In this document: positions 1,500-48,499 of the stretch, piece by piece
Layout of the letters: every line of letters starts with the position of its first letter
Numbering within the stretch: the stretch's first letter is position 1
Source of the DNA: Escherichia coli
GTDB taxonomy: Bacteria; Pseudomonadota; Gammaproteobacteria; Enterobacterales; Enterobacteriaceae
Assembly (NCBI RefSeq): GCF_022846255.1
Contig: NZ_AP025682.1
Direction: 5' to 3' (one strand)
DNA: 64,000 nucleotides
Notes under the pieces: model-generated
What the model was told of the DNA's origin: nothing
What the model saw: the letters and a program-made list of their open reading frames with translations, nothing else
Database searches by the model: none
Program-made: the position numbers and the translations under genes

Positions 1500-2063
1500 A
1501 TGAAACTCAAACATGTCGGTATGATTGTCGTTTCTGTATTGGCGATGTCGTCTGCTGCGGTAAGCGCAGCCGAGGGTGATGAATCAGTAACGACCACTGT
1601 TAATGGCGGTGTTATTCATTTTAAAGGTGAAGTGGTAAATGCCGCTTGTGCGATTGATTCAGAATCAATGAACCAAACGGTTGAGCTGGGTCAGGTCCGT
1701 TCTTCTCGTCTGGCTAAAGCGGGTGACCTCAGCTCCGCCGTTGGCTTCAATATCAAGCTGAATGATTGTGATACCAATGTTTCCAGTAATGCAGCTGTTG
1801 CATTCCTGGGTACTACTGTCACCAGTAATGACGATACATTAGCGCTGCAGAGTTTAGCGGCAGGCTCTGCCCAAAATGTTGGTATTCAAATTTTGGACCG
1901 TACGGGGGAGGTATTAATACTTGATGGTGCCACTTTTAGCGCTAAAACTGACTTGATTGATGGCACGAATATATTGCCGTTCCAGGCTCGATATATTGCT
2001 CTCGGGCAGTCAGTAGCTGGTACTGCAAACGCAGATGCGACCTTCAAAGTTCAATATCTATAA
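1500..2063 (+). CDS. F9/Yde-type fimbrial major subunit (FimA-like pilin)
   Basis: Signal peptide [23 protein letters not shown] followed by pilin-like sequence with conserved Cys pair; GGAG ribosome-binding site before ATG 1500; first gene of chaperone-usher operon. Confidence 0.85.
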
Positions 2064-2104
2064 TTCAATCTTAAGGTGGCTATACGTCATCTGAAATTGA
2101 AACA

Positions 2105-2133
2105 GGGTGTGTGTGGCATGGCTACGCACACCC
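2105..2133 (+). terminator. Intra-operon stem-loop after the major pilin gene (possible attenuator)
   Basis: gggtgtgtgt…acgcacaccc hairpin about 40 bp after the pilin stop; such hairpins after the major subunit gene are typical of chaperone-usher operons. Confidence 0.45.
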
Positions 2134-2415
2134 GAGCAATATACCTATGTTCATCTCATTTTTAATGAGGAATGGTTTTTATTTGGGAGCACTATGAAAA
2201 ATCACATAATATCTAAACGATCAATAAACAACAGTAGTTAAACTTGCTGTTATTTAAAATATTTACTTGGTAGCAAGGTTTTCCTATCAAAAGAGAACCA
2301 ACATTTATTACAAACGCATTAAGTCTGGAAACCCGGCGACTCGCCAATGTATTAGCAATATTTACCGATTGTCTGATGTAACGGTTTCCCCGCTTATCCT
2401 CTTAACACATGGAGA

Positions 2416-3135
2416 ATGCATCAGATGCAAACTACGCGTACCCCCTACTCTGTTTCCTTTATGGCGACAGTGTTACTTTTATTGCTCTTTGCTTGCCATA
2501 GCACCATTGCCAACGCAGCTGTCGCACTTGGTGCGACGCGGGTAATTTATCCGGCAAACCAGAAACAGGTTTTATTGCCTGTCACGAATAATGATCCTGC
2601 CAGTGTCTATCTCATTCAGTCATGGATAGAAAATGCGGGTGACCAGAAAGATACCCAGTTTGTCATTACCCCACCGCTTTTTTCCATGCAAGGTAAAAAA
2701 GAGAATACGCTTCGGATAATCAACGCCACTAATCATCAGTTACCAGGCGACCGTGAAAGCCTGTTCTGGGTTAATGTTAAAGCTATCCCTGCTATGGAAA
2801 AAGACCAGAAGAATGAGAATACATTACAGCTGGCAATTATTAGCCGCATAAAAATGTTTTATCGCCCCACGCATCTGGCAATGGCACCTGAAGAAGCGCC
2901 TGCAATGCTTCGGTTTCGTCGCAGCGGTAGCAAATTCACTCTTATTAATCCAACGCCCTACTTCATTACCGTAACGAATATGAAAGCAGGAAATAGCAAT
3001 CTCCCAAACACCATGGTGCCGCCAAAAGGTGAAGTATCGGTGGATATCCCGCATGCGGCAACCGGGGATATCAGTTTTCAGACAATCAATGATTACGGTG
3101 CATTAACTCCGCGTATTAAGGCAACCATGCAGTAA
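2416..3135 (+). CDS. Periplasmic fimbrial chaperone (PapD/FimC-like)
   Basis: N-terminal signal peptide (…LLLLLFACHSTIANA) and chaperone-like sequence; start codon uncertain (2416 to 2461). Confidence 0.8.
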   Translation: MHQMQTTRTPYSVSFMATVLLLLLFACHSTIANAAVALGATRVIYPANQKQVLLPVTNNDPASVYLIQSWIENAGDQKDTQFVITPPLFSMQGKKENTLRIINATNHQLPGDRESLFWVNVKAIPAMEKDQKNENTLQLAIISRIKMFYRPTHLAMAPEEAPAMLRFRRSGSKFTLINPTPYFITVTNMKAGNSNLPNTMVPPKGEVSVDIPHAATGDISFQTINDYGALTPRIKATMQ

Positions 3136-3176
3136 GCCAGTGACCTAATTAATAATAAACTCAATCGGGATTAAAA

Positions 3177-5828
3177 ATGACAGCCTTTCGTGCCGCATTT
3201 AAGGCATATCGTATGCATCAGGTGTTAATACTGCCTCGCTTTGCACGGCTTACCTTTGCCCTTGGCTTAGCAACTGCGGTTTTTCCCGTTGACGCAGAGT
3301 ATTATTTTAATCCACGGTTTTTAAGCAATGACCTTGCTGAATCTGTCGATTTATCTGCCTTTACTAAGGGACGCGAGGCCCCACCTGGTACATATCGGGT
3401 CGACATTTATTTGAACGACGAATTTATGGCTAGTCGGGATATTACTTTTATTGCAGATGATAATAACGCAGATCTCATCCCATGCCTGAGTACAGACCTT
3501 CTTGTCAGTCTTGGCATAAAAAAATCAGCATTATTAGACAACAAGGAACATTCGGCAGAAAAACATGTGCCGGACAACAGCGCATGCACACCACTTCAGG
3601 ATCGTTTGGCTGACGCATCATCTGAGTTTGATGTTGGTCAGCAACATCTGTCACTCTCCGTTCCGCAAATATATGTCGGCAGAATGGCTCGCGGCTATGT
3701 TTCTCCTGATCTGTGGGAAGAAGGAATAAATGCCGGGCTACTAAACTATAGTTTTAATGGTAATTCTATTAATAACCGTAGTAACCATAATGCAGGAAAA
3801 TCCAACTATGCATATTTGAATTTACAGAGTGGCATCAACATTGGTAGTTGGCGACTGCGCGATAACTCAACGTGGAGTTATAACAGTGGGAGTAGCAATT
3901 CATCTGACAGCAATAAATGGCAGCATATCAATACGTCGGCTGAACGTGACATTATTCCGTTACGCTCACGGTTAACAGTGGGTGATAGTTATACCGATGG
4001 CGATATTTTTGACAGTGTGAACTTTCGTGGCCTTAAAATAAATTCAACAGAAGCGATGTTGCCCGATAGCCAACATGGTTTCGCTCCGGTGATTCATGGT
4101 ATTGCTCGTGGCACCGCACAAGTGAGTGTAAAACAGAATGGATACGATGTTTATCAGACTACTGTCCCACCCGGCCCTTTTACTATTGATGATATCAACT
4201 CTGCGGCCAATGGTGGTGATCTGCAAGTAACCATAAAAGAGGCAGACGGCAGTATTCAGACATTATATGTTCCTTATTCGTCTGTTCCGGTTCTCCAACG
4301 TGCTGGATATACGCGTTATGCACTTGCCATGGGGGAATATCGTAGTGGAAATAACCTGCAAAGCACCCCCAAGTTCGTACAAGCAAGCTTGATGCATGGT
4401 CTGAAAGGAAACTGGACACCTTATGGCGGAATGCAAATTGCAGAAGATTATCAGGCCTTCAACCTTGGTATTGGTAAAGATTTAGGACTTTTTGGTGCCT
4501 TTTCTTTCGATATTACGCAGGCCAATACGACACTTGCAGATGACACCCGTCACAGCGGACAATCGGTTAAATCCGTCTACAGCAAATCCTTCTACCAGAC
4601 GGGAACCAATATCCAGGTCGCAGGATATCGCTATTCTACGCAAGGTTTTTATAACTTATCCGACAGTGCATACAGTCGAATGAGTGGTTACACCGTCAAG
4701 CCTCCTACCGGAGACACCAGTGAGCAGACACTATTTATTGATTATTTTAATCTGTTCTACAGTAAGCGTGATCAGGAACAAATAAGCATCTCTCAGCAGC
4801 TTGGAAATTACGGTACGACATTTTTCAGTGCCAGTCGCCAAAGTTACTGGAACACGTCACGCAGCGACCAGCAAATATCATTTGGATTAAATGTGCCGTT
4901 TGGTGATATTACGACTTCGCTGAATTACAGCTATTCCAATAATATATGGCAAAACGATCGGGATCATTTACTCGCTTTTACGCTTAATGTTCCCTTTAGT
5001 CATTGGATGCGTACAGACAGTCAGTCGGCATTTCATAATTCAAACGCCAGTTACAGTATGTCAAACGATTTGAAAGGCGGCATGACCAACCTATCAGGGG
5101 TTTATGGCACTCTGCTACCGGATAATAACCTGAATTATAGTGTTCAGGTCGGTAACACCCAAGGGGGTAATACATCGTCTGGCACCAGTGGTTACAGTTC
5201 TCTTAATTATCGTGGAGCTTACGGTAATACGAATGTCGGTTACAGTCGGAGTGGTGACAGCAGCCAGATTTATTACGGAATGAGTGGTGGGATTATTGCT
5301 CATGCTGATGGCATCACCTTTGGACAGCCGCTGGGCGACACAATGGTTCTGGTTAAGGCTCCTGGCGCTGATAATGTCAAAATAGAGAACCAGACCGGAA
5401 TTCATACCGACTGGCGTGGCTATGCCATATTACCATTTGCGACAGAATATAGAGAAAATCGTGTCGCTCTTAACGCGAATTCCCTTGCAGATAATGTTGA
5501 ACTGGATGAAACCGTAGTCACTGTCATCCCAACTCACGGTGCTATTGCCAGAGCAACATTTAATGCACAAATCGGCGGGAAAGTATTAATGACGTTGAAG
5601 TACGGTAATAAAAGCGTTCCATTCGGTGCAATTGTCACTCACGGAGAGAATAAAAATGGCAGCATTGTCGCGGAAAATGGTCAGGTTTATCTGACTGGAC
5701 TTCCACAGTCAGGGAAATTACAGGTTTCATGGGGCAATGATAAAAACTCAAACTGTATTGTCGATTACAAGCTTCCTGTAGTCTCTCCTGGAACCTTGCT
5801 GAACCAGCAGACAGCAATCTGTCGCTAA
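3177..5828 (+). CDS. ydeT: Fimbrial outer-membrane usher (FimD-like), full length
   Basis: 883-aa ORF with usher hallmarks (YFNPRFL…, GTYRVDIYLN…, C-terminal Cys pair); a pseudogene in K-12 but intact here; exact start uncertain. Confidence 0.85.
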   Translation: MTAFRAAFKAYRMHQVLILPRFARLTFALGLATAVFPVDAEYYFNPRFLSNDLAESVDLSAFTKGREAPPGTYRVDIYLNDEFMASRDITFIADDNNADLIPCLSTDLLVSLGIKKSALLDNKEHSAEKHVPDNSACTPLQDRLADASSEFDVGQQHLSLSVPQIYVGRMARGYVSPDLWEEGINAGLLNYSFNGNSINNRSNHNAGKSNYAYLNLQSGINIGSWRLRDNSTWSYNSGSSNSSDSNKWQHINTSAERDIIPLRSRLTVGDSYTDGDIFDSVNFRGLKINSTEAMLPDSQHGFAPVIHGIARGTAQVSVKQNGYDVYQTTVPPGPFTIDDINSAANGGDLQVTIKEADGSIQTLYVPYSSVPVLQRAGYTRYALAMGEYRSGNNLQSTPKFVQASLMHGLKGNWTPYGGMQIAEDYQAFNLGIGKDLGLFGAFSFDITQANTTLADDTRHSGQSVKSVYSKSFYQTGTNIQVAGYRYSTQGFYNLSDSAYSRMSGYTVKPPTGDTSEQTLFIDYFNLFYSKRDQEQISISQQLGNYGTTFFSASRQSYWNTSRSDQQISFGLNVPFGDITTSLNYSYSNNIWQNDRDHLLAFTLNVPFSHWMRTDSQSAFHNSNASYSMSNDLKGGMTNLSGVYGTLLPDNNLNYSVQVGNTQGGNTSSGTSGYSSLNYRGAYGNTNVGYSRSGDSSQIYYGMSGGIIAHADGITFGQPLGDTMVLVKAPGADNVKIENQTGIHTDWRGYAILPFATEYRENRVALNANSLADNVELDETVVTVIPTHGAIARATFNAQIGGKVLMTLKYGNKSVPFGAIVTHGENKNGSIVAENGQVYLTGLPQSGKLQVSWGNDKNSNCIVDYKLPVVSPGTLLNQQTAICR

Positions 5829-7862: not shown

Positions 7863-7934
7863 TTGTGATTTTGACATTAGTCTATGCGCTCCATTCACGA
7901 AAATTGCGCGGATAATTATTTTGTGAAGGCTATT

Positions 7935-7952
7935 ATCCTACACTTGTAAGAA
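7935..7952 (+). promoter_or_regulatory. EvgA box upstream of ydeP
   Basis: aTCCTACA-CT-TGTAAGAA matches the EvgA inverted-repeat consensus TTCYTACA-N2-TGTRGAA. Confidence 0.6.
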
Positions 7953-8051
7953 AATCCGCGCACAATTGAAGCCAGAGTCTTATTTTTTATATTGAGAATT
8001 ATGTTAATTTAAACCCTATGAGAGATGATGCTTAACTTATCGTATTTATAC

Positions 8052-8110
8052 TACTCTATTATTTAACGATAATAGAGTAAAAATAGTAAGAGAGTAGTCC
8101 CCTACTCTTA
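8052..8110 (+). repeat. Perfect 11-bp inverted repeat (tactctattat-ttaacg-ataatagagta) plus further TACTCT/AGAGTA copies
   Basis: Read directly in the ydeQ-ydeP intergenic region; four copies of the hexamer in alternating orientation. Confidence 0.5.
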
Positions 8111-8200
8111 TATATCCATGTTGACGATAAACCCTATGTATATACTGTGCATCATCGCTATTACAAATCCTAATAATTCATTTCCACACAGGATAAGCAG

Positions 8201-10480
8201 ATGAAGAAAAAAATTGAATCCTACCAGGGAGCTGCCGGTGGTTGGGGTGCTGTTAAATCCGTAGCGAATGCAGTACGTAAGCAGATGGATATACGCCAGG
8301 ATGTTATTGCCATGTTTGACATGAATAAGCCAGAGGGCTTTGACTGTCCGGGATGTGCATGGCCAGATCCTAAGCACAGTGCGTCATTCGACATTTGTGA
8401 AAACGGCGCAAAAGCAATCGCCTGGGAAGCCACGGATAAGCAGGTAAATGCCTCTTTCTTTGCTGAGAATACGGTTCAATCATTACTTACCTGGGGAGAT
8501 CACGAGCTTGAGGCTGCGGGACGTCTCACTCAGCCTTTGAAATATGATGACGTCAGCGACTGTTACAAGCTATTAAGCTGGCAACAAGCTTTCGACGAAA
8601 TTGGCGAACGCCTTCAAAGCTATAGTGATCCCAATCAGGTTGAATTCTATACTTCGGGCCGCACTTCCAATGAAGCTGCCTTTCTTTATCAGCTTTTTGC
8701 CCGTGAATACGGGAGCAATAACTTCCCCGACTGCTCCAACATGTGCCATGAACCGACCAGTGTGGGTTTGGCAGCGAGTATCGGTGTAGGTAAAGGGACC
8801 GTGTTGCTGGAAGACTTTGAGAAATGCGATTTAGTCATTTGCATTGGGCATAACCCTGGTACAAACCACCCTCGCATGTTGACTTCGTTGCGCGCTTTAG
8901 TGAAACGGGGAGCGAAAATGATCGCCATCAATCCTCTACAGGAACGTGGCCTGGAGCGATTTACCGCACCGCAAAACCCGTTTGAAATGCTGACGAACTC
9001 TGAGACTCAGTTGGCCAGTGCCTACTACAACGTGCGCATTGGTGGTGATATGGCGTTGCTCAAGGGGATGATGCGCCTGTTAATTGAGCGCGATGATGCT
9101 GCAAGCGCCGCAGGTCGGCCCTCATTGCTGGATGACGAATTTATTCAAACGCATACCGTCGGCTTTGACGAGCTACGCCGTGACGTGCTCAATTCCGAGT
9201 GGAAAGATATCGAACGTATTTCTGGATTAAGTCAGACTCAAATCGCCGAACTGGCTGATGCATATGCCGCTGCCGAACGCACCATTATCTGTTACGGAAT
9301 GGGGATCACTCAGCACGAACATGGTACCCAGAATGTACAGCAACTGGTCAATCTGCTGTTGATGAAAGGTAACATTGGCAAGCCTGGTGCGGGTATCTGC
9401 CCACTACGAGGTCACTCTAATGTACAGGGCGACCGAACCGTCGGTATCACCGAGAAACCGTCTGCAGAGTTTCTGGCTCGCCTGGGTGAGCGCTATGGTT
9501 TCACCCCACCTCATGCACCTGGACATGCTGCAATTGCCAGCATGCAAGCAATATGTACGGGGCAGGCTCGCGCATTGATCTGCATGGGGGGCAACTTTGC
9601 ACTGGCAATGCCAGATCGGGAAGCGAGCGCTGTACCGTTAACGCAATTAGATCTGGCGGTACACGTTGCCACTAAGCTTAACCGCTCTCATCTGCTGACC
9701 GCACGGCATAGCTATATTCTGCCGGTTCTGGGACGTAGCGAGATTGACATGCAAAAAAGCGGTGCGCAGGCGGTAACCGTTGAAGATTCAATGTCGATGA
9801 TTCATGCCTCGCGTGGTGTGTTAAAACCCGCCGGTGTAATGCTGAAATCAGAGTGTGCAGTGGTCGCGGGAATCGCGCAAGCAGCACTACCCCAGAGCGT
9901 GGTAGCCTGGGAGTATCTGGTGGAAGATTATGATCGCATTCGCAATGACATTGAAGCTGTGCTGCCAGAGTTTGCCGACTATAACCAGCGCATCCGTCAT
10001 CCTGGTGGTTTTCACCTGATAAACGCAGCAGCTGAAAGGCGCTGGATGACGTCGTCAGGTAAGGCTAATTTCATTACCAGTAAAGGGCTGTTAGAAGATC
10101 CCTCTTCAGCGTTTAACAGTAAGCTGGTCATGGCGACAGTACGCAGTCACGATCAGTACAACACGACGATTTATGGTATGGATGATCGCTATCGAGGGGT
10201 ATTCGGTCAACGAGATGTGGTCTTTATGAGTGCTAAACAAGCTAAAATTTGCCGTGTAAAAAACGGCGAAAGAGTTAATCTTATTGCACTCACGCCAGAC
10301 GGTAAACGTAGCTCACGCCGCATGGATAGATTAAAAGTGGTCATTTACCCTATGGCTGACCGCTCACTGGTGACCTATTTTCCAGAATCGAATCACATGC
10401 TAACACTTGATAACCACGATCCATTAAGTGGCATTCCTGGCTATAAAAGTATTCCGGTTGAATTAGAACCATCAAATTAA
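8201..10480 (+). CDS. ydeP: Acid-resistance molybdopterin oxidoreductase (formate dehydrogenase-like, FdhF family)
   Basis: 759-aa ORF matching YdeP length and sequence; no in-frame TGA. Confidence 0.92.
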
Positions 10481-42676: not shown

Positions 42677-45600
42677 TTACGCCTTCTCGATGTTGACTAA
42701 GAACGCTTTATATTCCGGCGTTTGCGAGTTTGCATCACCGACATTCGGCGTCAGAGTGTTAGCGATATAACCTTTACGCGCGACACCCTCAAAGCCCCAG
42801 TGGATCGGAATACCCACCGTTTCAACCTGCTGACCGTTTACATTCAGCGGTTTCAGACGGCGCGTTACCACCGCCACCGCGCGGATAAAGCCACGCTTGC
42901 TTGAGACAGTGACACGATCGCCATTATTAATGCCTTTCGCCGCCGCCAGCGTTTCGCTGATTTCCACAAACTGTTCCGGCTGAGCAATTGCGTTGAGCAA
43001 CGCGTGCTTGGTCCAGGTGTGGAAGTGCTCGGTCAGACGATAGGTCGTACCCACATACGGGAACTGCTCTTTTTTACCCATCCGCAGCGCGTCTTGTTCA
43101 TACAGACGAACGACCGGGTTAGACACCACGTTCGGATGCAGCGGGTTAGTGCCCAGCGGCGTTTCAATCGGCTCGTAGTGTTCCGGGAACGGACCTTCCG
43201 CCATTTTGTTGATGGCAAACAGGCGTCCCATCCCTTCCGGCTGCATGATAAACGGTCCGGTTGGTGTACCTGGCGCGGCATTGCCGAAGTCCGGAATATC
43301 GTTACCCGTCCACTTGCTGCCGTTCCACTGAATCAGCATCCGTTTCGGATCCCACGGTTTACCGTTGATATCCGCCGAAGCACGGTTGTAGAGTACGCGA
43401 CGGTTGAGCGGCCACGCCCAGGCCCATCCCAGCGTATTCCCCAGACCAGATGGGTCAGAGTTATCGCGGTTAGCCATCTGGTTGCCCTGCTCTGTCCAGC
43501 TACCGGTGTAGATCCAGCAAGACGATGCGGTTGTACCGTCATCACGCAGATGCGCAAAGCTACTCAGCAACTGACCTTTCTTCGCAATCAGCACGCCATT
43601 GGCATCATAGAGATCTTCCAGCGCGTAGCCGTTGTTCTCTTTCGCTACTTCGTCAGATTGCGGTTCGTGCGGCTGCTTGTAGTTCCAGCTCATCTTCATC
43701 AGCGGTTCTACGCCTTTACCACCCTCGGCCTGGTACAGCTCGCGCAGATGATGGTAGATACCCGCCAGAATTTCGCCGTCGTTACGTGCTTCGCCCGGCG
43801 CGTCCTGACCTTTCCAGTGCCACTGCAACCAGCGACCGGAGTTAGCGATAGAACCATCTTCTTCAGCAAAGCAGGTCGAAGGCAGACGGAATACTTCAGT
43901 CTGAATAGATGCCGGATCGACATCGTTCGACTCGCCGTGGTTCTGCCAGAAGGTAGAGGTTTCAGTCACCAGCGGATCGATAACCACCATGTACTTCAGT
44001 TTGCTCAGGCAGCTCACCACTTTGTTTTTGTCCGGGAAGGACGCAACCGGGTTAAAGCCCTGGCAGAAATAACCGGTGACTTTGCCTTCGTCCATCATGT
44101 TGAAATACTTGATGACGTCGTAGGTCTGGTCCCACTTCGGCAGCCAGTCGTAGCCCCAGTTGTTCTCTTTCTGCGCGGCATCGCCGTAGAAAGATTTCAT
44201 CAGGCTAACGAAAAACTTCGGATAGTTGCTCCAGTAGTTCACCTGATCAGCCAGCGTCGCTTTCGGCGTGTTCGCTTCCAGATACGACTGCAAATCAACC
44301 TGTTTTTCTGACGGCAGCGTCAGATAACCTGGCAGGCTGGTAGAGAGCAGGCCTAAGTCAGTCAGGCCCTGAATGTTGGAGTGACCACGCAATGCGTTCA
44401 CGCCGCCACCGGCCATACCCATGTTACCGAGCAGCAACTGGATCATCGCCATCGTACGGATGTTCTGCGCACCCACGGTGTGCTGCGTCCAGCCCAGCGC
44501 GTACAGGAAGGTGGTTGTGCGATCCGGTGCGCTGGTGGAGGCCAGCACTTCACACACTTTCAGGAAGTCGGCTTTTGGCGTACCGCAAATGTTTTCTACT
44601 ACGTCCGGCGTGTAGCGGGAAACGTGCGCTTTCAGCAGATTCCATACACAGCGCGGATGAGTCAGCGTGTCATCGCGTTTCGCATAGCCGTTTTCATCGA
44701 ACTGATAGTTCCAGGACGACTTATCGTATTGACGTTTTTCAGCGTCGTAGCCGCTGAACAGACCGTCTTCGAAAGCAAAATCATCACGCACCAGCAGGCT
44801 GGCGTTGGTGTAATGCTTAACGTATTCGGCGTTGATTTTGTTGTTTTCGATCAGGTAGCGCAAAACGCCAGACAGGAACGTAATGTCCGTACCGGAACGA
44901 ATAGGTGCGTAAATATCCGCCACAGAAGCGGTACGCGTAAAACGGGGATCGACAACGATCAAGGTTGCATCGTTGTTGTTTTTCGCTTCCATCGCCCAGC
45001 GGAAACCGACGGGATGCGCTTCAGCAGCGTTACCGCCCATCACCATTACGACGTTAGCGTTTTTGATATCCACCCAGTGGTTGGTCATCGCACCGCGACC
45101 AAATGTTGGAGCAAGACTTGCTACCGTTGGTCCGTGTCAGACGCGCGCCTGGTTGTCTACCGCCAGCATCCCGAGGGAGCGGGCAAATTTTTGAGTCAGC
45201 ATCCCGGTTTCGTTGCTGGCACCGGAAGCACACAGCATACCGGTAGAAAGCCAACGGTTTACCGTTACGCCCTGCTCGTTCTTTTCAATAAAGTTAGCGT
45301 CACGGTCGGCTTTCATCAGCTTCGCAATACGGGAGAATGCTTCTTCCCAGCTAATGCGCTGCCATTTGTCAGAACCTGGCGCACGATATTCCGGGTAGCG
45401 CAGACGGTTTTCGCTGTTGACGTAATCCAGCAAACCGGCCCCTTTCGGGCACAGCGCACCACGGCTTACCGGATGATCCGGGTCACCTTCAATGTGATAA
45501 ATCGCTTCTCTGGCGTTTTTCGCGCCATCACCCAGGCTATACATCAATAGCCCGCAACCTACGGAACAGTATGTGCAGGTGTTACGGATCTCTTTCGCGC

Positions 45601-45724
45601 GTAATAATTTGTAGTTTCGCGCCTGAGCCAGTGCTTGCTTCGGGGCAAAGCCCAATGCTGCTACTGTTGTTCCCGCCATACCGCCCGCGCAGATTTTAAA
45701 AAATTGTCTGCGACTGACGTCCAT
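42677..45724 (-). CDS. fdnG: Formate dehydrogenase-N alpha subunit, selenocysteine-containing (TGA at 45137..45139 read as Sec)
   Basis: Two ORF-track pieces (195 aa and 803 aa) are in one frame separated only by TGA; context …VDNQARV-U-HGPTVASLAPTFGRGAMTNHW…; Tat signal MDVSRRQFFKICAGG at N-terminus. Confidence 0.95.
45090..45139 (-). other. Selenocysteine UGA codon plus downstream SECIS stem-loop region in fdnG mRNA
   Basis: In-frame TGA at 45137..45139 (minus strand) inside an otherwise uninterrupted 1016-codon frame; bacterial SECIS lies immediately 3' of the UGA. Confidence 0.85.
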
Positions 45725-45788
45725 TGCTTTCCTCTTTTTTCAGGGGTATTACTGCGCGAGGAAACTAACAGTAAAATTCTGAATCTTT

Positions 45789-45802
45789 TTGCGCGAAATC
45801 AA
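45789..45802 (-). promoter_or_regulatory. Putative FNR half-site pair in fdnG promoter
   Basis: TTGCG-CGAA-ATCAA, partial match to TTGAT-N4-ATCAA; position relative to the transcription start not determinable here. Confidence 0.4.
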
Positions 45803-45849
45803 AAAGAACACGTGTTTGCCACAAAATAATCCTCCTGCGCAAATTGACC

Positions 45850-45865
45850 TACCTCAATAGCGGTA
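45850..45865 (-). promoter_or_regulatory. NarL 7-2-7 heptamer pair upstream of fdnG
   Basis: TACCTCA-AT-AGCGGTA, inverted TACYYMT heptamers with 2-bp spacer, ~130 bp upstream of the fdnG start codon. Confidence 0.6.
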
Positions 45866-45956
45866 GAAAAACGCACCACTGCCTGACAGGCCAGTTAAAA
45901 AAAATGCTATAAAATTCAGCTTAATTTTTAACGGCAAGAGAGACAAAACAGCGAGC

Positions 45957-46838
45957 ATGACACGACAAAAAGCAACGCTCATAGGGCTAATAGCGATCGT
46001 CCTGTGGAGCACGATGGTAGGATTGATTCGCGGTGTCAGTGAGGGACTCGGCCCGGTCGGCGGCGCAGCTGCTATCTATTCATTAAGCGGGCTGCTGTTA
46101 ATCTTCACGGTTGGATTTCCGCGTATTCGGCAGATCCCGAAAGGCTATTTACTCGCCGGGAGTCTGTTATTCGTCAGCTATGAAATCTGTCTGGCGCTTT
46201 CCTTAGGGTATGCGGCGACCCGTCATCAGGCGATTGAAGTGGGGATGGTGAACTATCTGTGGCCCAGCCTGACAATTCTCTTTGCCATTCTGTTTAATGG
46301 TCAGAAAACCAACTGGCTGATTGTACCAGGATTATTATTAGCCCTGGTCGGCGTCTGCTGGGTGTTAGGCGGTGACAATGGGTTACATTATGATCAAATT
46401 ATTAATAATATCACCACCAGCCCATTGAGTTATTTCCTGGCGTTCATTGGGGCGTTTATCTGGGCAGCCTACTGCACAGTAACGAATAAATACGCACGCG
46501 GATTTAACGGAATTACCGTTTTTGTCCTGCTAACGGGAGCAAGTCTGTGGGTTTACTATTTTCTTACGCCACAACCAGAAATGGTATTTAGCACGCCCGT
46601 CATGATTAAACTCATCTCTGCGGCATTTACCTTAGGATTTGCTTATGCTGCATGGAATGTCGGTATATTACATGGCAACGTCACCATAATGGCGGTAGGT
46701 TCGTATTTTACGCCCGTCCTTTCCTCAGCGCTTGCAGCCGTGCTGCTCAGCGCCCCGCTGTCGTTCTCGTTCTGGCAAGGCGCGCTAATGGTCTGCGGCG
46801 GTTCCCTGCTCTGCTGGCTGGCGACACGTCGTGGCTAA
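45957..46838 (+). CDS. yddG: Aromatic amino acid exporter (DMT family)
   Basis: 293 aa, ten predicted TM segments. Confidence 0.92.
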   Translation: MTRQKATLIGLIAIVLWSTMVGLIRGVSEGLGPVGGAAAIYSLSGLLLIFTVGFPRIRQIPKGYLLAGSLLFVSYEICLALSLGYAATRHQAIEVGMVNYLWPSLTILFAILFNGQKTNWLIVPGLLLALVGVCWVLGGDNGLHYDQIINNITTSPLSYFLAFIGAFIWAAYCTVTNKYARGFNGITVFVLLTGASLWVYYFLTPQPEMVFSTPVMIKLISAAFTLGFAYAAWNVGILHGNVTIMAVGSYFTPVLSSALAAVLLSAPLSFSFWQGALMVCGGSLLCWLATRRG

Positions 46839-47110
46839 AATAATTGTCGGGTCTACGGCCCGGCAGTTAATCAGATAAATTCTGACAATATTAAAAAATA
46901 AATTTCAAATACCAGAAAGTCATTTTAGTTACATTTAGTAACACATATCTGTCTGTTTATTCCACATTCTGCCCCCGCAGTTACGCTTTCTTATCTATTC
47001 TTCTAATCAGCACTTCACCTGATTCATCCTTAATTCTAATAACTGGCTATTGCGCCTTACCTCCTGTTTTGTCTTTTTTTCATTACCAATGTGTGCATGT
47101 GAGGAACAAT

Positions 47111-48499
47111 ATGGCACTGCAAAATGAGAAAAATAGTCGTTATCTTTTACGCGACTGGAAACCAGAAAATCCGGCCTTCTGGGAAAATAAAGGAAAGCAT
47201 ATTGCACGAAGAAACCTCTGGATATCAGTCAGTTGCCTACTTCTTGCCTTCTGTGTCTGGATGCTATTTAGCGCAGTTACTGTTAATCTCAATAAAATCG
47301 GTTTTAATTTCACTACCGATCAACTCTTTTTATTAACCGCATTACCCTCCGTTTCTGGCGCATTATTGCGTGTCCCCTACTCCTTTATGGTGCCTATATT
47401 CGGTGGACGCCGATGGACGGTTTTTAGTACTGCAATCCTGATTATTCCTTGCGTCTGGCTCGGAATTGCCGTGCAAAATCCGAATACCCCTTTTGGGATA
47501 TTTATCGTTATCGCTTTGCTATGCGGTTTTGCAGGTGCGAACTTTGCTTCGAGCATGGGCAATATCAGTTTCTTCTTTCCAAAAGCCAAACAAGGGAGCG
47601 CTCTTGGGATTAATGGCGGATTAGGAAACTTAGGTGTAAGTGTGATGCAGCTGGTTGCACCGCTGGTCATTTTTGTCCCCGTATTTGCCTTTCTCGGCGT
47701 CAATGGCGTACCGCAGGCCGACGGTTCGGTGATGTCGCTGGCGAATGCCGCATGGATTTGGGTGCCATTACTGGCGATTGCCACGATCGCCGCCTGGTCA
47801 GGGATGAATGATATCGCCAGTTCACGCGCCTCAATTGCCGACCAGCTCCCTGTCTTGCAACGCCTGCATCTCTGGCTGCTGAGCCTGCTTTATCTTGCCA
47901 CCTTCGGTTCGTTTATCGGTTTTTCTGCGGGTTTTGCCATGCTGGCAAAAACCCAGTTCCCGGATGTGAATATTCTGCGCCTGGCGTTCTTTGGCCCATT
48001 TATCGGTGCCATCGCGCGATCGGTTGGTGGTGCTATTTCCGATAAATTCGGCGGCGTGCGGGTGACGTTGATCAACTTCATTTTTATGGCGATTTTCAGC
48101 GCCCTGCTGTTCCTTACCTTACCGGGCACAGGCTCCGGTAATTTCATCGCATTTTACGCCGTATTTATGGGGCTGTTTCTGACCGCGGGTCTGGGAAGTG
48201 GTTCTACTTTCCAGATGATCGCCGTCATCTTTCGCCAGATAACAATTTATCGGGTGAAGATGAAAGGCGGTAGTGATGAGCAAGCTCAAAGAGAAGCCGT
48301 CACCGAAACGGCAGCCGCTCTGGGCTTTATCTCAGCCATTGGCGCAGTGGGCGGCTTTTTTATTCCGCAGGCGTTTGGCATGTCGCTCAATATGACCGGC
48401 TCTCCGGTGGGCGCGATGAAAGTGTTTTTAATCTTCTACATCGTTTGTGTGCTACTGACCTGGCTGGTTTATGGTCGGCGGAAGTTCAGCCAAAAATAA
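47111..48499 (+). CDS. narU: Nitrate/nitrite transporter (MFS)
   Basis: 462 aa from MALQNEKNSRYLLRDWKPENPAFWE…. Confidence 0.93.
   Translation: MALQNEKNSRYLLRDWKPENPAFWENKGKHIARRNLWISVSCLLLAFCVWMLFSAVTVNLNKIGFNFTTDQLFLLTALPSVSGALLRVPYSFMVPIFGGRRWTVFSTAILIIPCVWLGIAVQNPNTPFGIFIVIALLCGFAGANFASSMGNISFFFPKAKQGSALGINGGLGNLGVSVMQLVAPLVIFVPVFAFLGVNGVPQADGSVMSLANAAWIWVPLLAIATIAAWSGMNDIASSRASIADQLPVLQRLHLWLLSLLYLATFGSFIGFSAGFAMLAKTQFPDVNILRLAFFGPFIGAIARSVGGAISDKFGGVRVTLINFIFMAIFSALLFLTLPGTGSGNFIAFYAVFMGLFLTAGLGSGSTFQMIAVIFRQITIYRVKMKGGSDEQAQREAVTETAAALGFISAIGAVGGFFIPQAFGMSLNMTGSPVGAMKVFLIFYIVCVLLTWLVYGRRKFSQK

Follow-up and report, generated by a model that had tools for sequence, protein, structure and literature searches.

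Organization of the yddG-narU locus

In the 64-kb window (the whole stretch of DNA analysed here), yddG and narU follow each other on the + strand. The left gene, yddG (45957-46838), is an ORF encoding an aromatic amino acid exporter of 293 aa, which shows 97% identity to K-12 yddG by BLAST and carries the same annotation in the matching RefSeq genomes. The right gene, narU (47111-48499), encodes a nitrate/nitrite transporter of 462 aa; the length of its ORF equals that of the 1389-bp K-12 narU, and it is likewise annotated as narU in the matching genomes. A ribosome-binding site, GAGGAA (47101-47106, + strand), lies 4 nt before the narU ATG at 47111 and is conserved in the alignment. The spacer between the two genes (46839-47110) measures 272 bp and has a G+C content of ~35%, compared with ~50% in the flanking yddG and narU, and no ORF of at least 20 aa was found wholly within it, consistent with the gap of about 270 bp, AT-rich and free of ORFs, that the first-pass annotation had placed at exactly these coordinates. 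Elsewhere in the window, the minus-strand fdnG frame is interrupted by an in-frame TGA (45137-45139) between ...DNQARV and HGPTVASL; formate dehydrogenase-N is expected to have its selenocysteine codon here, and fdnG is not a pseudogene.

In K-12, yddG does not adjoin narU. The RefSeq annotation of MG1655 gives the order narU-yddJ-yddK-yddL-yddG, in agreement with the K-12 map given in the first-pass annotation, and the leucine-rich-repeat (LRR) protein and the porin pseudogene mentioned there correspond to yddK, encoding an LRR protein, and yddL, a porin fragment; yddJ is a pseudogene. These genes (b1472-b1470) occupy the same site between the same flanking genes as the spacer in the window, where all three are absent as had been claimed, and DNA of this segment was found nowhere in the 64 kb.

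Alignment to K-12, proposed earlier as a means of finding the endpoints and any flanking repeats, produced two collinear BLAST blocks of 97% identity, the first extending to 46922 and the second starting at 46925. In place of the intervening 'TT' (46923-46924), whose position is ambiguous by a few bases in the alignments to K-12, O157 and IAI39, K-12 retains 1,956 bp with a G+C content of 33.7% (NC_000913.3, 1544247-1546202) and the window nothing. O157:H7 strain WS4202 breaks at the identical window positions and carries 4,143 bp (36% G+C), and in IAI39 the aligned blocks stop at 46915 and start again at 46928, leaving ~4,156 bp between them. The K-12 segment and the O157 island have identical junctions with the flanks, and the breakpoints are precise and common to the island-bearing forms compared. 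The 84 bp following yddG (46839-46922, + strand) form an E. coli-specific 3' flank, common by BLAST to the island-bearing K-12, O157, 405, C4 and IAI39.

No direct or inverted repeats of at least 9 bp flank the island ends, and the spacer itself contains no significant repeats, only chance-level matches of 8-12 nt, none of them att-like or IS-like. An Rfam scan of 45700-47400 hit no tRNA or other RNA family and gave just a sub-threshold miRNA match, which was taken as chance. The sequence at the junction would fit a clean deletion together with one G-to-T change, but also 2 bp of filler, and is diagnostic of neither.

Distribution of the short form in E. coli

The first-pass annotation regarded the difference as a presence/absence polymorphism, and a survey of 5,426 complete E. 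coli genomes bears this out. yddG and narU are contiguous in 1,133 genomes (~21%), 1,115 of the 5,426 carry the exact 62-bp junction, and at least part of the K-12 segment is present in 4,291 (~79% with some form of the segment). The short and island states together account for 5,424 genomes and are thus essentially exclusive and exhaustive. With 1,115 complete genomes sharing the exact junction, the yddG-narU gap is a real structural difference and not a chance feature.

Among the matches listed, all recognisable short-form strains, namely 536, O25b:H4-ST131, Nissle (EcN), UM146, clone D i14, APEC O2:K1:H4 and the type strain ATCC 11775, are ones that we take to belong to phylogroup B2. The window is the phylogroup-B2 form of the yddG-narU locus, and the 62-bp junction provides a clean lineage marker, every assignable genome that carries it being B2. 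Where the segment is present in E. coli, 5,308 of its 5,312 places are on chromosomes, and the median genome has one place.

A few genomes match neither form. In ZH142 just 82 bp of yddG could be aligned, and EC23HZZ201 matches no more of the island than its last 64 bp, suggesting still larger deletions at the locus.

Identity of the missing segment and its allelic series

The segment absent from the window is EHEC O-island 62, which lies at the same chromosomal site and of which the window keeps none. This island comprises EDL933 z2239-z2242, near Sakai ECs2075, between yddG and narU (Okeke et al. 2011, Gut Pathog 3:4, PMC3079680), and has been reported in O157, O55:H7, EAEC 042, UMN026, IAI39, SMS-3-5 and Shigella (PMC3079680). 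The same paper compares the versions in EHEC, EAEC 042 and K-12; the B2 junction and the relation of the porin to ompD are not discussed there.

In its full form, ~4.1 kb long and found in O157:H7 (phylogroup E), strain C4 and IAI39 (ST62, phylogroup F), the locus runs from yddG through an intact 366-aa porin gene, LRR gene fragments and an LRR gene of 417-419 aa to narU. The porin is annotated as 'OmpC' and the LRR gene, in O157, as espR1, a T3SS effector. Aligned to the O157 island, the K-12 segment is the same DNA with two stretches deleted internally (island positions 459-1994 and 2321-2961), and it keeps the N-terminal 96 codons of the porin (yddL), a chimera of two LRR genes (yddK) and a C-terminal fragment of espR1. 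The K-12 version has been proposed to arise by 'insertion of yddK' (PMC3079680). This origin was rejected on the alignment, in which yddK is an LRR fusion, and the published reading is corrected accordingly: K-12 yddK derives from internal deletions rather than from an insertion.

Other strains are eroded in other ways. Strain 405 carries an O157-type island minus one internal deletion that differs from those in K-12. In GSH8M-2 (NZ_AP019675.1, positions 2000-3181 of the extracted locus), IS1 replaces a K-12-type island except for its first 34 bp and last 107 bp, between flanks that are K-12-identical or K-12-like; this IS1 form is an independent loss of yddJKL, separate from the B2 event. The window is the complete loss in this allelic series. 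Neither the LRR genes espR1/yddK nor the additional porin is present in B2 strains.

The segment shows no sign of being a mobile genomic island: no integrase, tRNA or att target or direct repeats were found, nor copies on phages, on genuine plasmids or at other chromosomal sites. The annotated island genes include no integrase or recombinase, only the porin and LRR proteins; the match to phage records is confined to the porin CDS, at 70% identity; and of the four matches in the plasmid collection PLSDB, three are chromosomes of 4.8-4.9 Mb, leaving a single record of 219 kb. Mobility of the island, considered as a candidate explanation, gained no support from these phage and plasmid searches. 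The three chromosomes belong to E. coli, are filed in PLSDB as plasmids and are the source of the full-length island matches in that collection.

The porin gene following yddG in other Enterobacteriaceae

An outgroup scan with YddG, taking one genome per species, returned 80 loci; E. albertii, E. fergusonii and E. marmotae were not among the returns under those names. A porin gene directly follows yddG in Citrobacter, Salmonella enterica subsp. arizonae and diarizonae, Enterobacter and Lelliottia, and these syntenic porins are 68-75% identical to the E. coli porin. In Citrobacter and Enterobacter, narU-narZ lies a few kb farther downstream. In Citrobacter sp. MGH106, yddG and the porin are followed by a small Cys-rich ORF, then by a 495-aa MFS pump encoded on the opposite strand, a TetR regulator and finally narU, an order that matches the Salmonella yddG-ompD-smvA neighbourhood. 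In the Salmonella literature, ompD, yddG and smvA are named together (e.g. PMC4215857). The Salmonella/Citrobacter locus (yddG-ompD-smvA-smvR-narU) has an OmpD-clade porin straight after yddG, as in island-bearing E. coli. Beyond the porin, those genera have the small Cys-rich gene, the MFS pump and the TetR regulator, whereas E. coli has the LRR genes, and the window has neither set.

Neighbour-joining places the E. coli porin with the syntenic porins and NmpC, away from OmpC, OmpN, OmpF and PhoE. Its identity is 70-75% to the syntenic porins, 69% to NmpC and 60-62% to OmpC, OmpF, PhoE and OmpN, and it shares the signal peptide MKLK(I/L)VAV with the OmpD/NmpC clade. It sits on a long branch, and its G+C content is 44%, compared with 48-52% in the syntenic porins. 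Moreover, ~90 bp just upstream of the porin start codon align to Salmonella and Citrobacter (E = 3e-8 and 6e-5, respectively). By position and tree, the missing porin (the intact form of yddL) belongs to the OmpD/NmpC clade, and it probably reached its present site by vertical descent.

Short forms also occur outside E. coli. Two genomes labelled 'E. coli' (L007 and L008) have 85-87% nucleotide identity to the window and are non-coli Escherichia; in both, yddG adjoins narU. Over the 70-95 bp nearest yddG the two are similar to each other and dissimilar to positions 46839-46927 of the window. The number of shuffles, out of 500, that scored as well as the real pair was 74 for window-L008, 367 for window-L007, 2 for L007-L008 and 0 for window-O157. 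Compared with L007/L008, Citrobacter and Salmonella, the 46839-46927 half of the B2 spacer aligned no better than shuffled sequence.

In Escherichia sp. MOD1-EC7003 (positions 7882-8900), yddG adjoins nhoA on the opposite strand; both narU-narZYWV and yddE are missing, so that this other Escherichia species has a larger deletion at the yddG locus.

Polarity of the difference

We infer that the direction of the B2 event was loss rather than gain, and likewise its mechanism: with a probability of about 70%, the short form is a clean, repeat-free deletion on the B2 lineage and not an empty ancestral site. The E. coli ancestor would have carried a ~4.1-kb segment between yddG and narU, comprising an OmpD-family porin, LRR fragments and espR1, and a single repeat-independent (illegitimate) deletion would have removed the whole of it on the B2 lineage, from 84 bp past the yddG stop codon to 3-4 bp short of a conserved palindrome. 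Such an event would have joined the yddG 3' hairpin directly to an intact narU regulatory region, and K-12 yddL-yddK-yddJ would be a different, partial decay product of the same ancestral segment.

Several observations favour loss in B2. The porin sits where OmpD-clade porins sit across the family, a coincidence that an ancestral empty site could explain only by the chance landing of an OmpD-clade porin exactly where other Enterobacteriaceae carry one. The full form is found in strains of phylogroups E, D and F and the decayed form in A, that is, in lineages on both sides of B2. Phylogroup F is the group nearest B2, and the presence of the island in IAI39 argues against an island gained by a non-B2 ancestor; IAI39 belongs to ST62, as does CE10, a strain given as phylogroup F (PMC11537424). 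Between E. coli lineages, divergence in the porin part is ~2%, as it is in yddG and narU, which indicates long co-residence with the flanks and favours loss over recent insertion. The locus also decays by deletion in several independent ways (K-12, 405 and GSH8M-2). Finally, the left half of the B2 spacer is common to island-bearing E. coli and not shared with the outgroup short forms, whose yddG-proximal half is unrelated, suggesting that the B2 junction is not simply a retained outgroup state.

The alternative, possible though on the unlikely side, is that the short form is ancestral, the Escherichia ancestor already being without the ompD-smvA region, and that the island was inserted later in a non-B2 ancestor. 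Low G+C and effector-like cargo are the usual signature of acquired DNA, and the segment has both, its G+C content being 34-37% where the flanks have ~50%, and its cargo including type III effector-like LRR genes, among them the annotated T3SS effector espR1. The long branch of the porin, its 70-75% identity to the syntenic porins and its lower G+C also speak against loss, and the two non-coli Escherichia genomes in which yddG adjoins narU make an empty Escherichia ancestor conceivable. The junction, for its part, offers no confidently readable diagnostic scar, either microhomology or filler. Okeke et al. considered the island recently acquired (PMC3079680). Against an insertion stand the lack of any integrase, tRNA or direct or inverted repeat at the island ends, and the phage and plasmid records, which hold no phage or genuine plasmid copies beyond the 70%-identical phage porin genes. 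Under the preferred reading of loss in B2, the published view changes, since the porin part of O-island 62 looks like a decayed counterpart of the post-yddG OmpD-type porin and not like a recent import.

A deletion mediated by an IS element, as in GSH8M-2, with later loss of the IS, is very improbable. IS1-mediated loss of the same segment is known in that K-12-like background, but no IS remnant, terminal inverted repeat or target duplication was found at the junction or in the spacer of the window, GSH8M-2 has different endpoints and retains island DNA at both ends, and B2 relatives with an IS at 46923 and the same endpoints are absent across the 1,115 genomes. An assembly or sequencing artefact, in which the island was present in the strain and collapsed from the assembly, found no supporting evidence and has a negligible probability, given the identical junction in 1,115 independently finished genomes, flanks that join unambiguously and the absence of island DNA elsewhere in the window.

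The short form is an ordinary, precisely bounded, lineage-specific gene-content difference at an already documented locus, with little importance beyond bookkeeping. Beyond the first-pass annotation, the analysis adds the polarity (most likely loss in B2), the identity of the segment (O-island 62, with an OmpD-type porin and espR1) and its prior documentation.

Elements retained in the spacer

Fold prediction places a hairpin with a 13-bp stem just past the yddG stop codon (46841-46869, + strand), and together with a small second hairpin (46871-46885) it has a folding energy of -22.8 kcal/mol (z = -7.4). No U-tract follows it on the + strand and a terminator scan of the spacer found none, so the hairpin does not qualify as an intrinsic terminator of yddG. 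The T-rich run is on the other strand, and in the short form no gene converges there.

At the right side of the junction, the palindrome GTTAC-ATTTA-GTAAC (46928-46942) marks the left edge of the conserved region upstream of narU. Its core, TTACA-N5-GTAAC, is invariant in 27 of 27 aligned narU upstream sequences, which come from Escherichia, Citrobacter, Enterobacter, Kluyvera, Raoultella and others, and from the palindrome rightward the sequence upstream of narU is conserved between the Salmonella/Citrobacter-type locus and the window. Farther downstream, the conserved ATCTATTCTT (46993-47002, + strand; pattern ATCTATYCTT) is invariant at 9 of 10 positions in the same 27 sequences. In its letters it may resemble a -10 element with an upstream C (CTATTCT), of the sigma-S promoter type. 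narUZYWV is expressed in stationary phase, which would fit a sigma-S-type -10 element. If this assignment holds, the palindrome would lie near -73 relative to the predicted transcription start. A consensus sigma-70 scan detected nothing at 46993-47002 and, in the whole spacer, one minus-strand promoter-like site, at chance rate.

The palindrome was compared with NarL/NarP 7-2-7, FNR, ArcA, ModE, NsrR and LysR T-N11-A sites, and none gave a convincing match.

The variable segment stops 3-4 bp before the conserved narU block in every form, so that all forms keep the same narU control region. It is doubtful that the palindrome, as an uncharacterised narUZYWV control element, determines where the indel ends on the right and that narU expression in B2 differs from that in K-12. 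On that reading, loss of the island in B2 would leave the palindrome ~60 bp from a yddG hairpin without a U-tract, and narU expression could shift through read-through from yddG or through loss of island-borne transcription. Mutations upstream of narU are reported to raise narUZYWV expression, and clinical isolates have been screened for regulatory mutations between narU and yddJ (PMC11417348). The short form accounts for 'variants' or gaps in the narU-yddJ intergenic region when B2 genomes are mapped to K-12.
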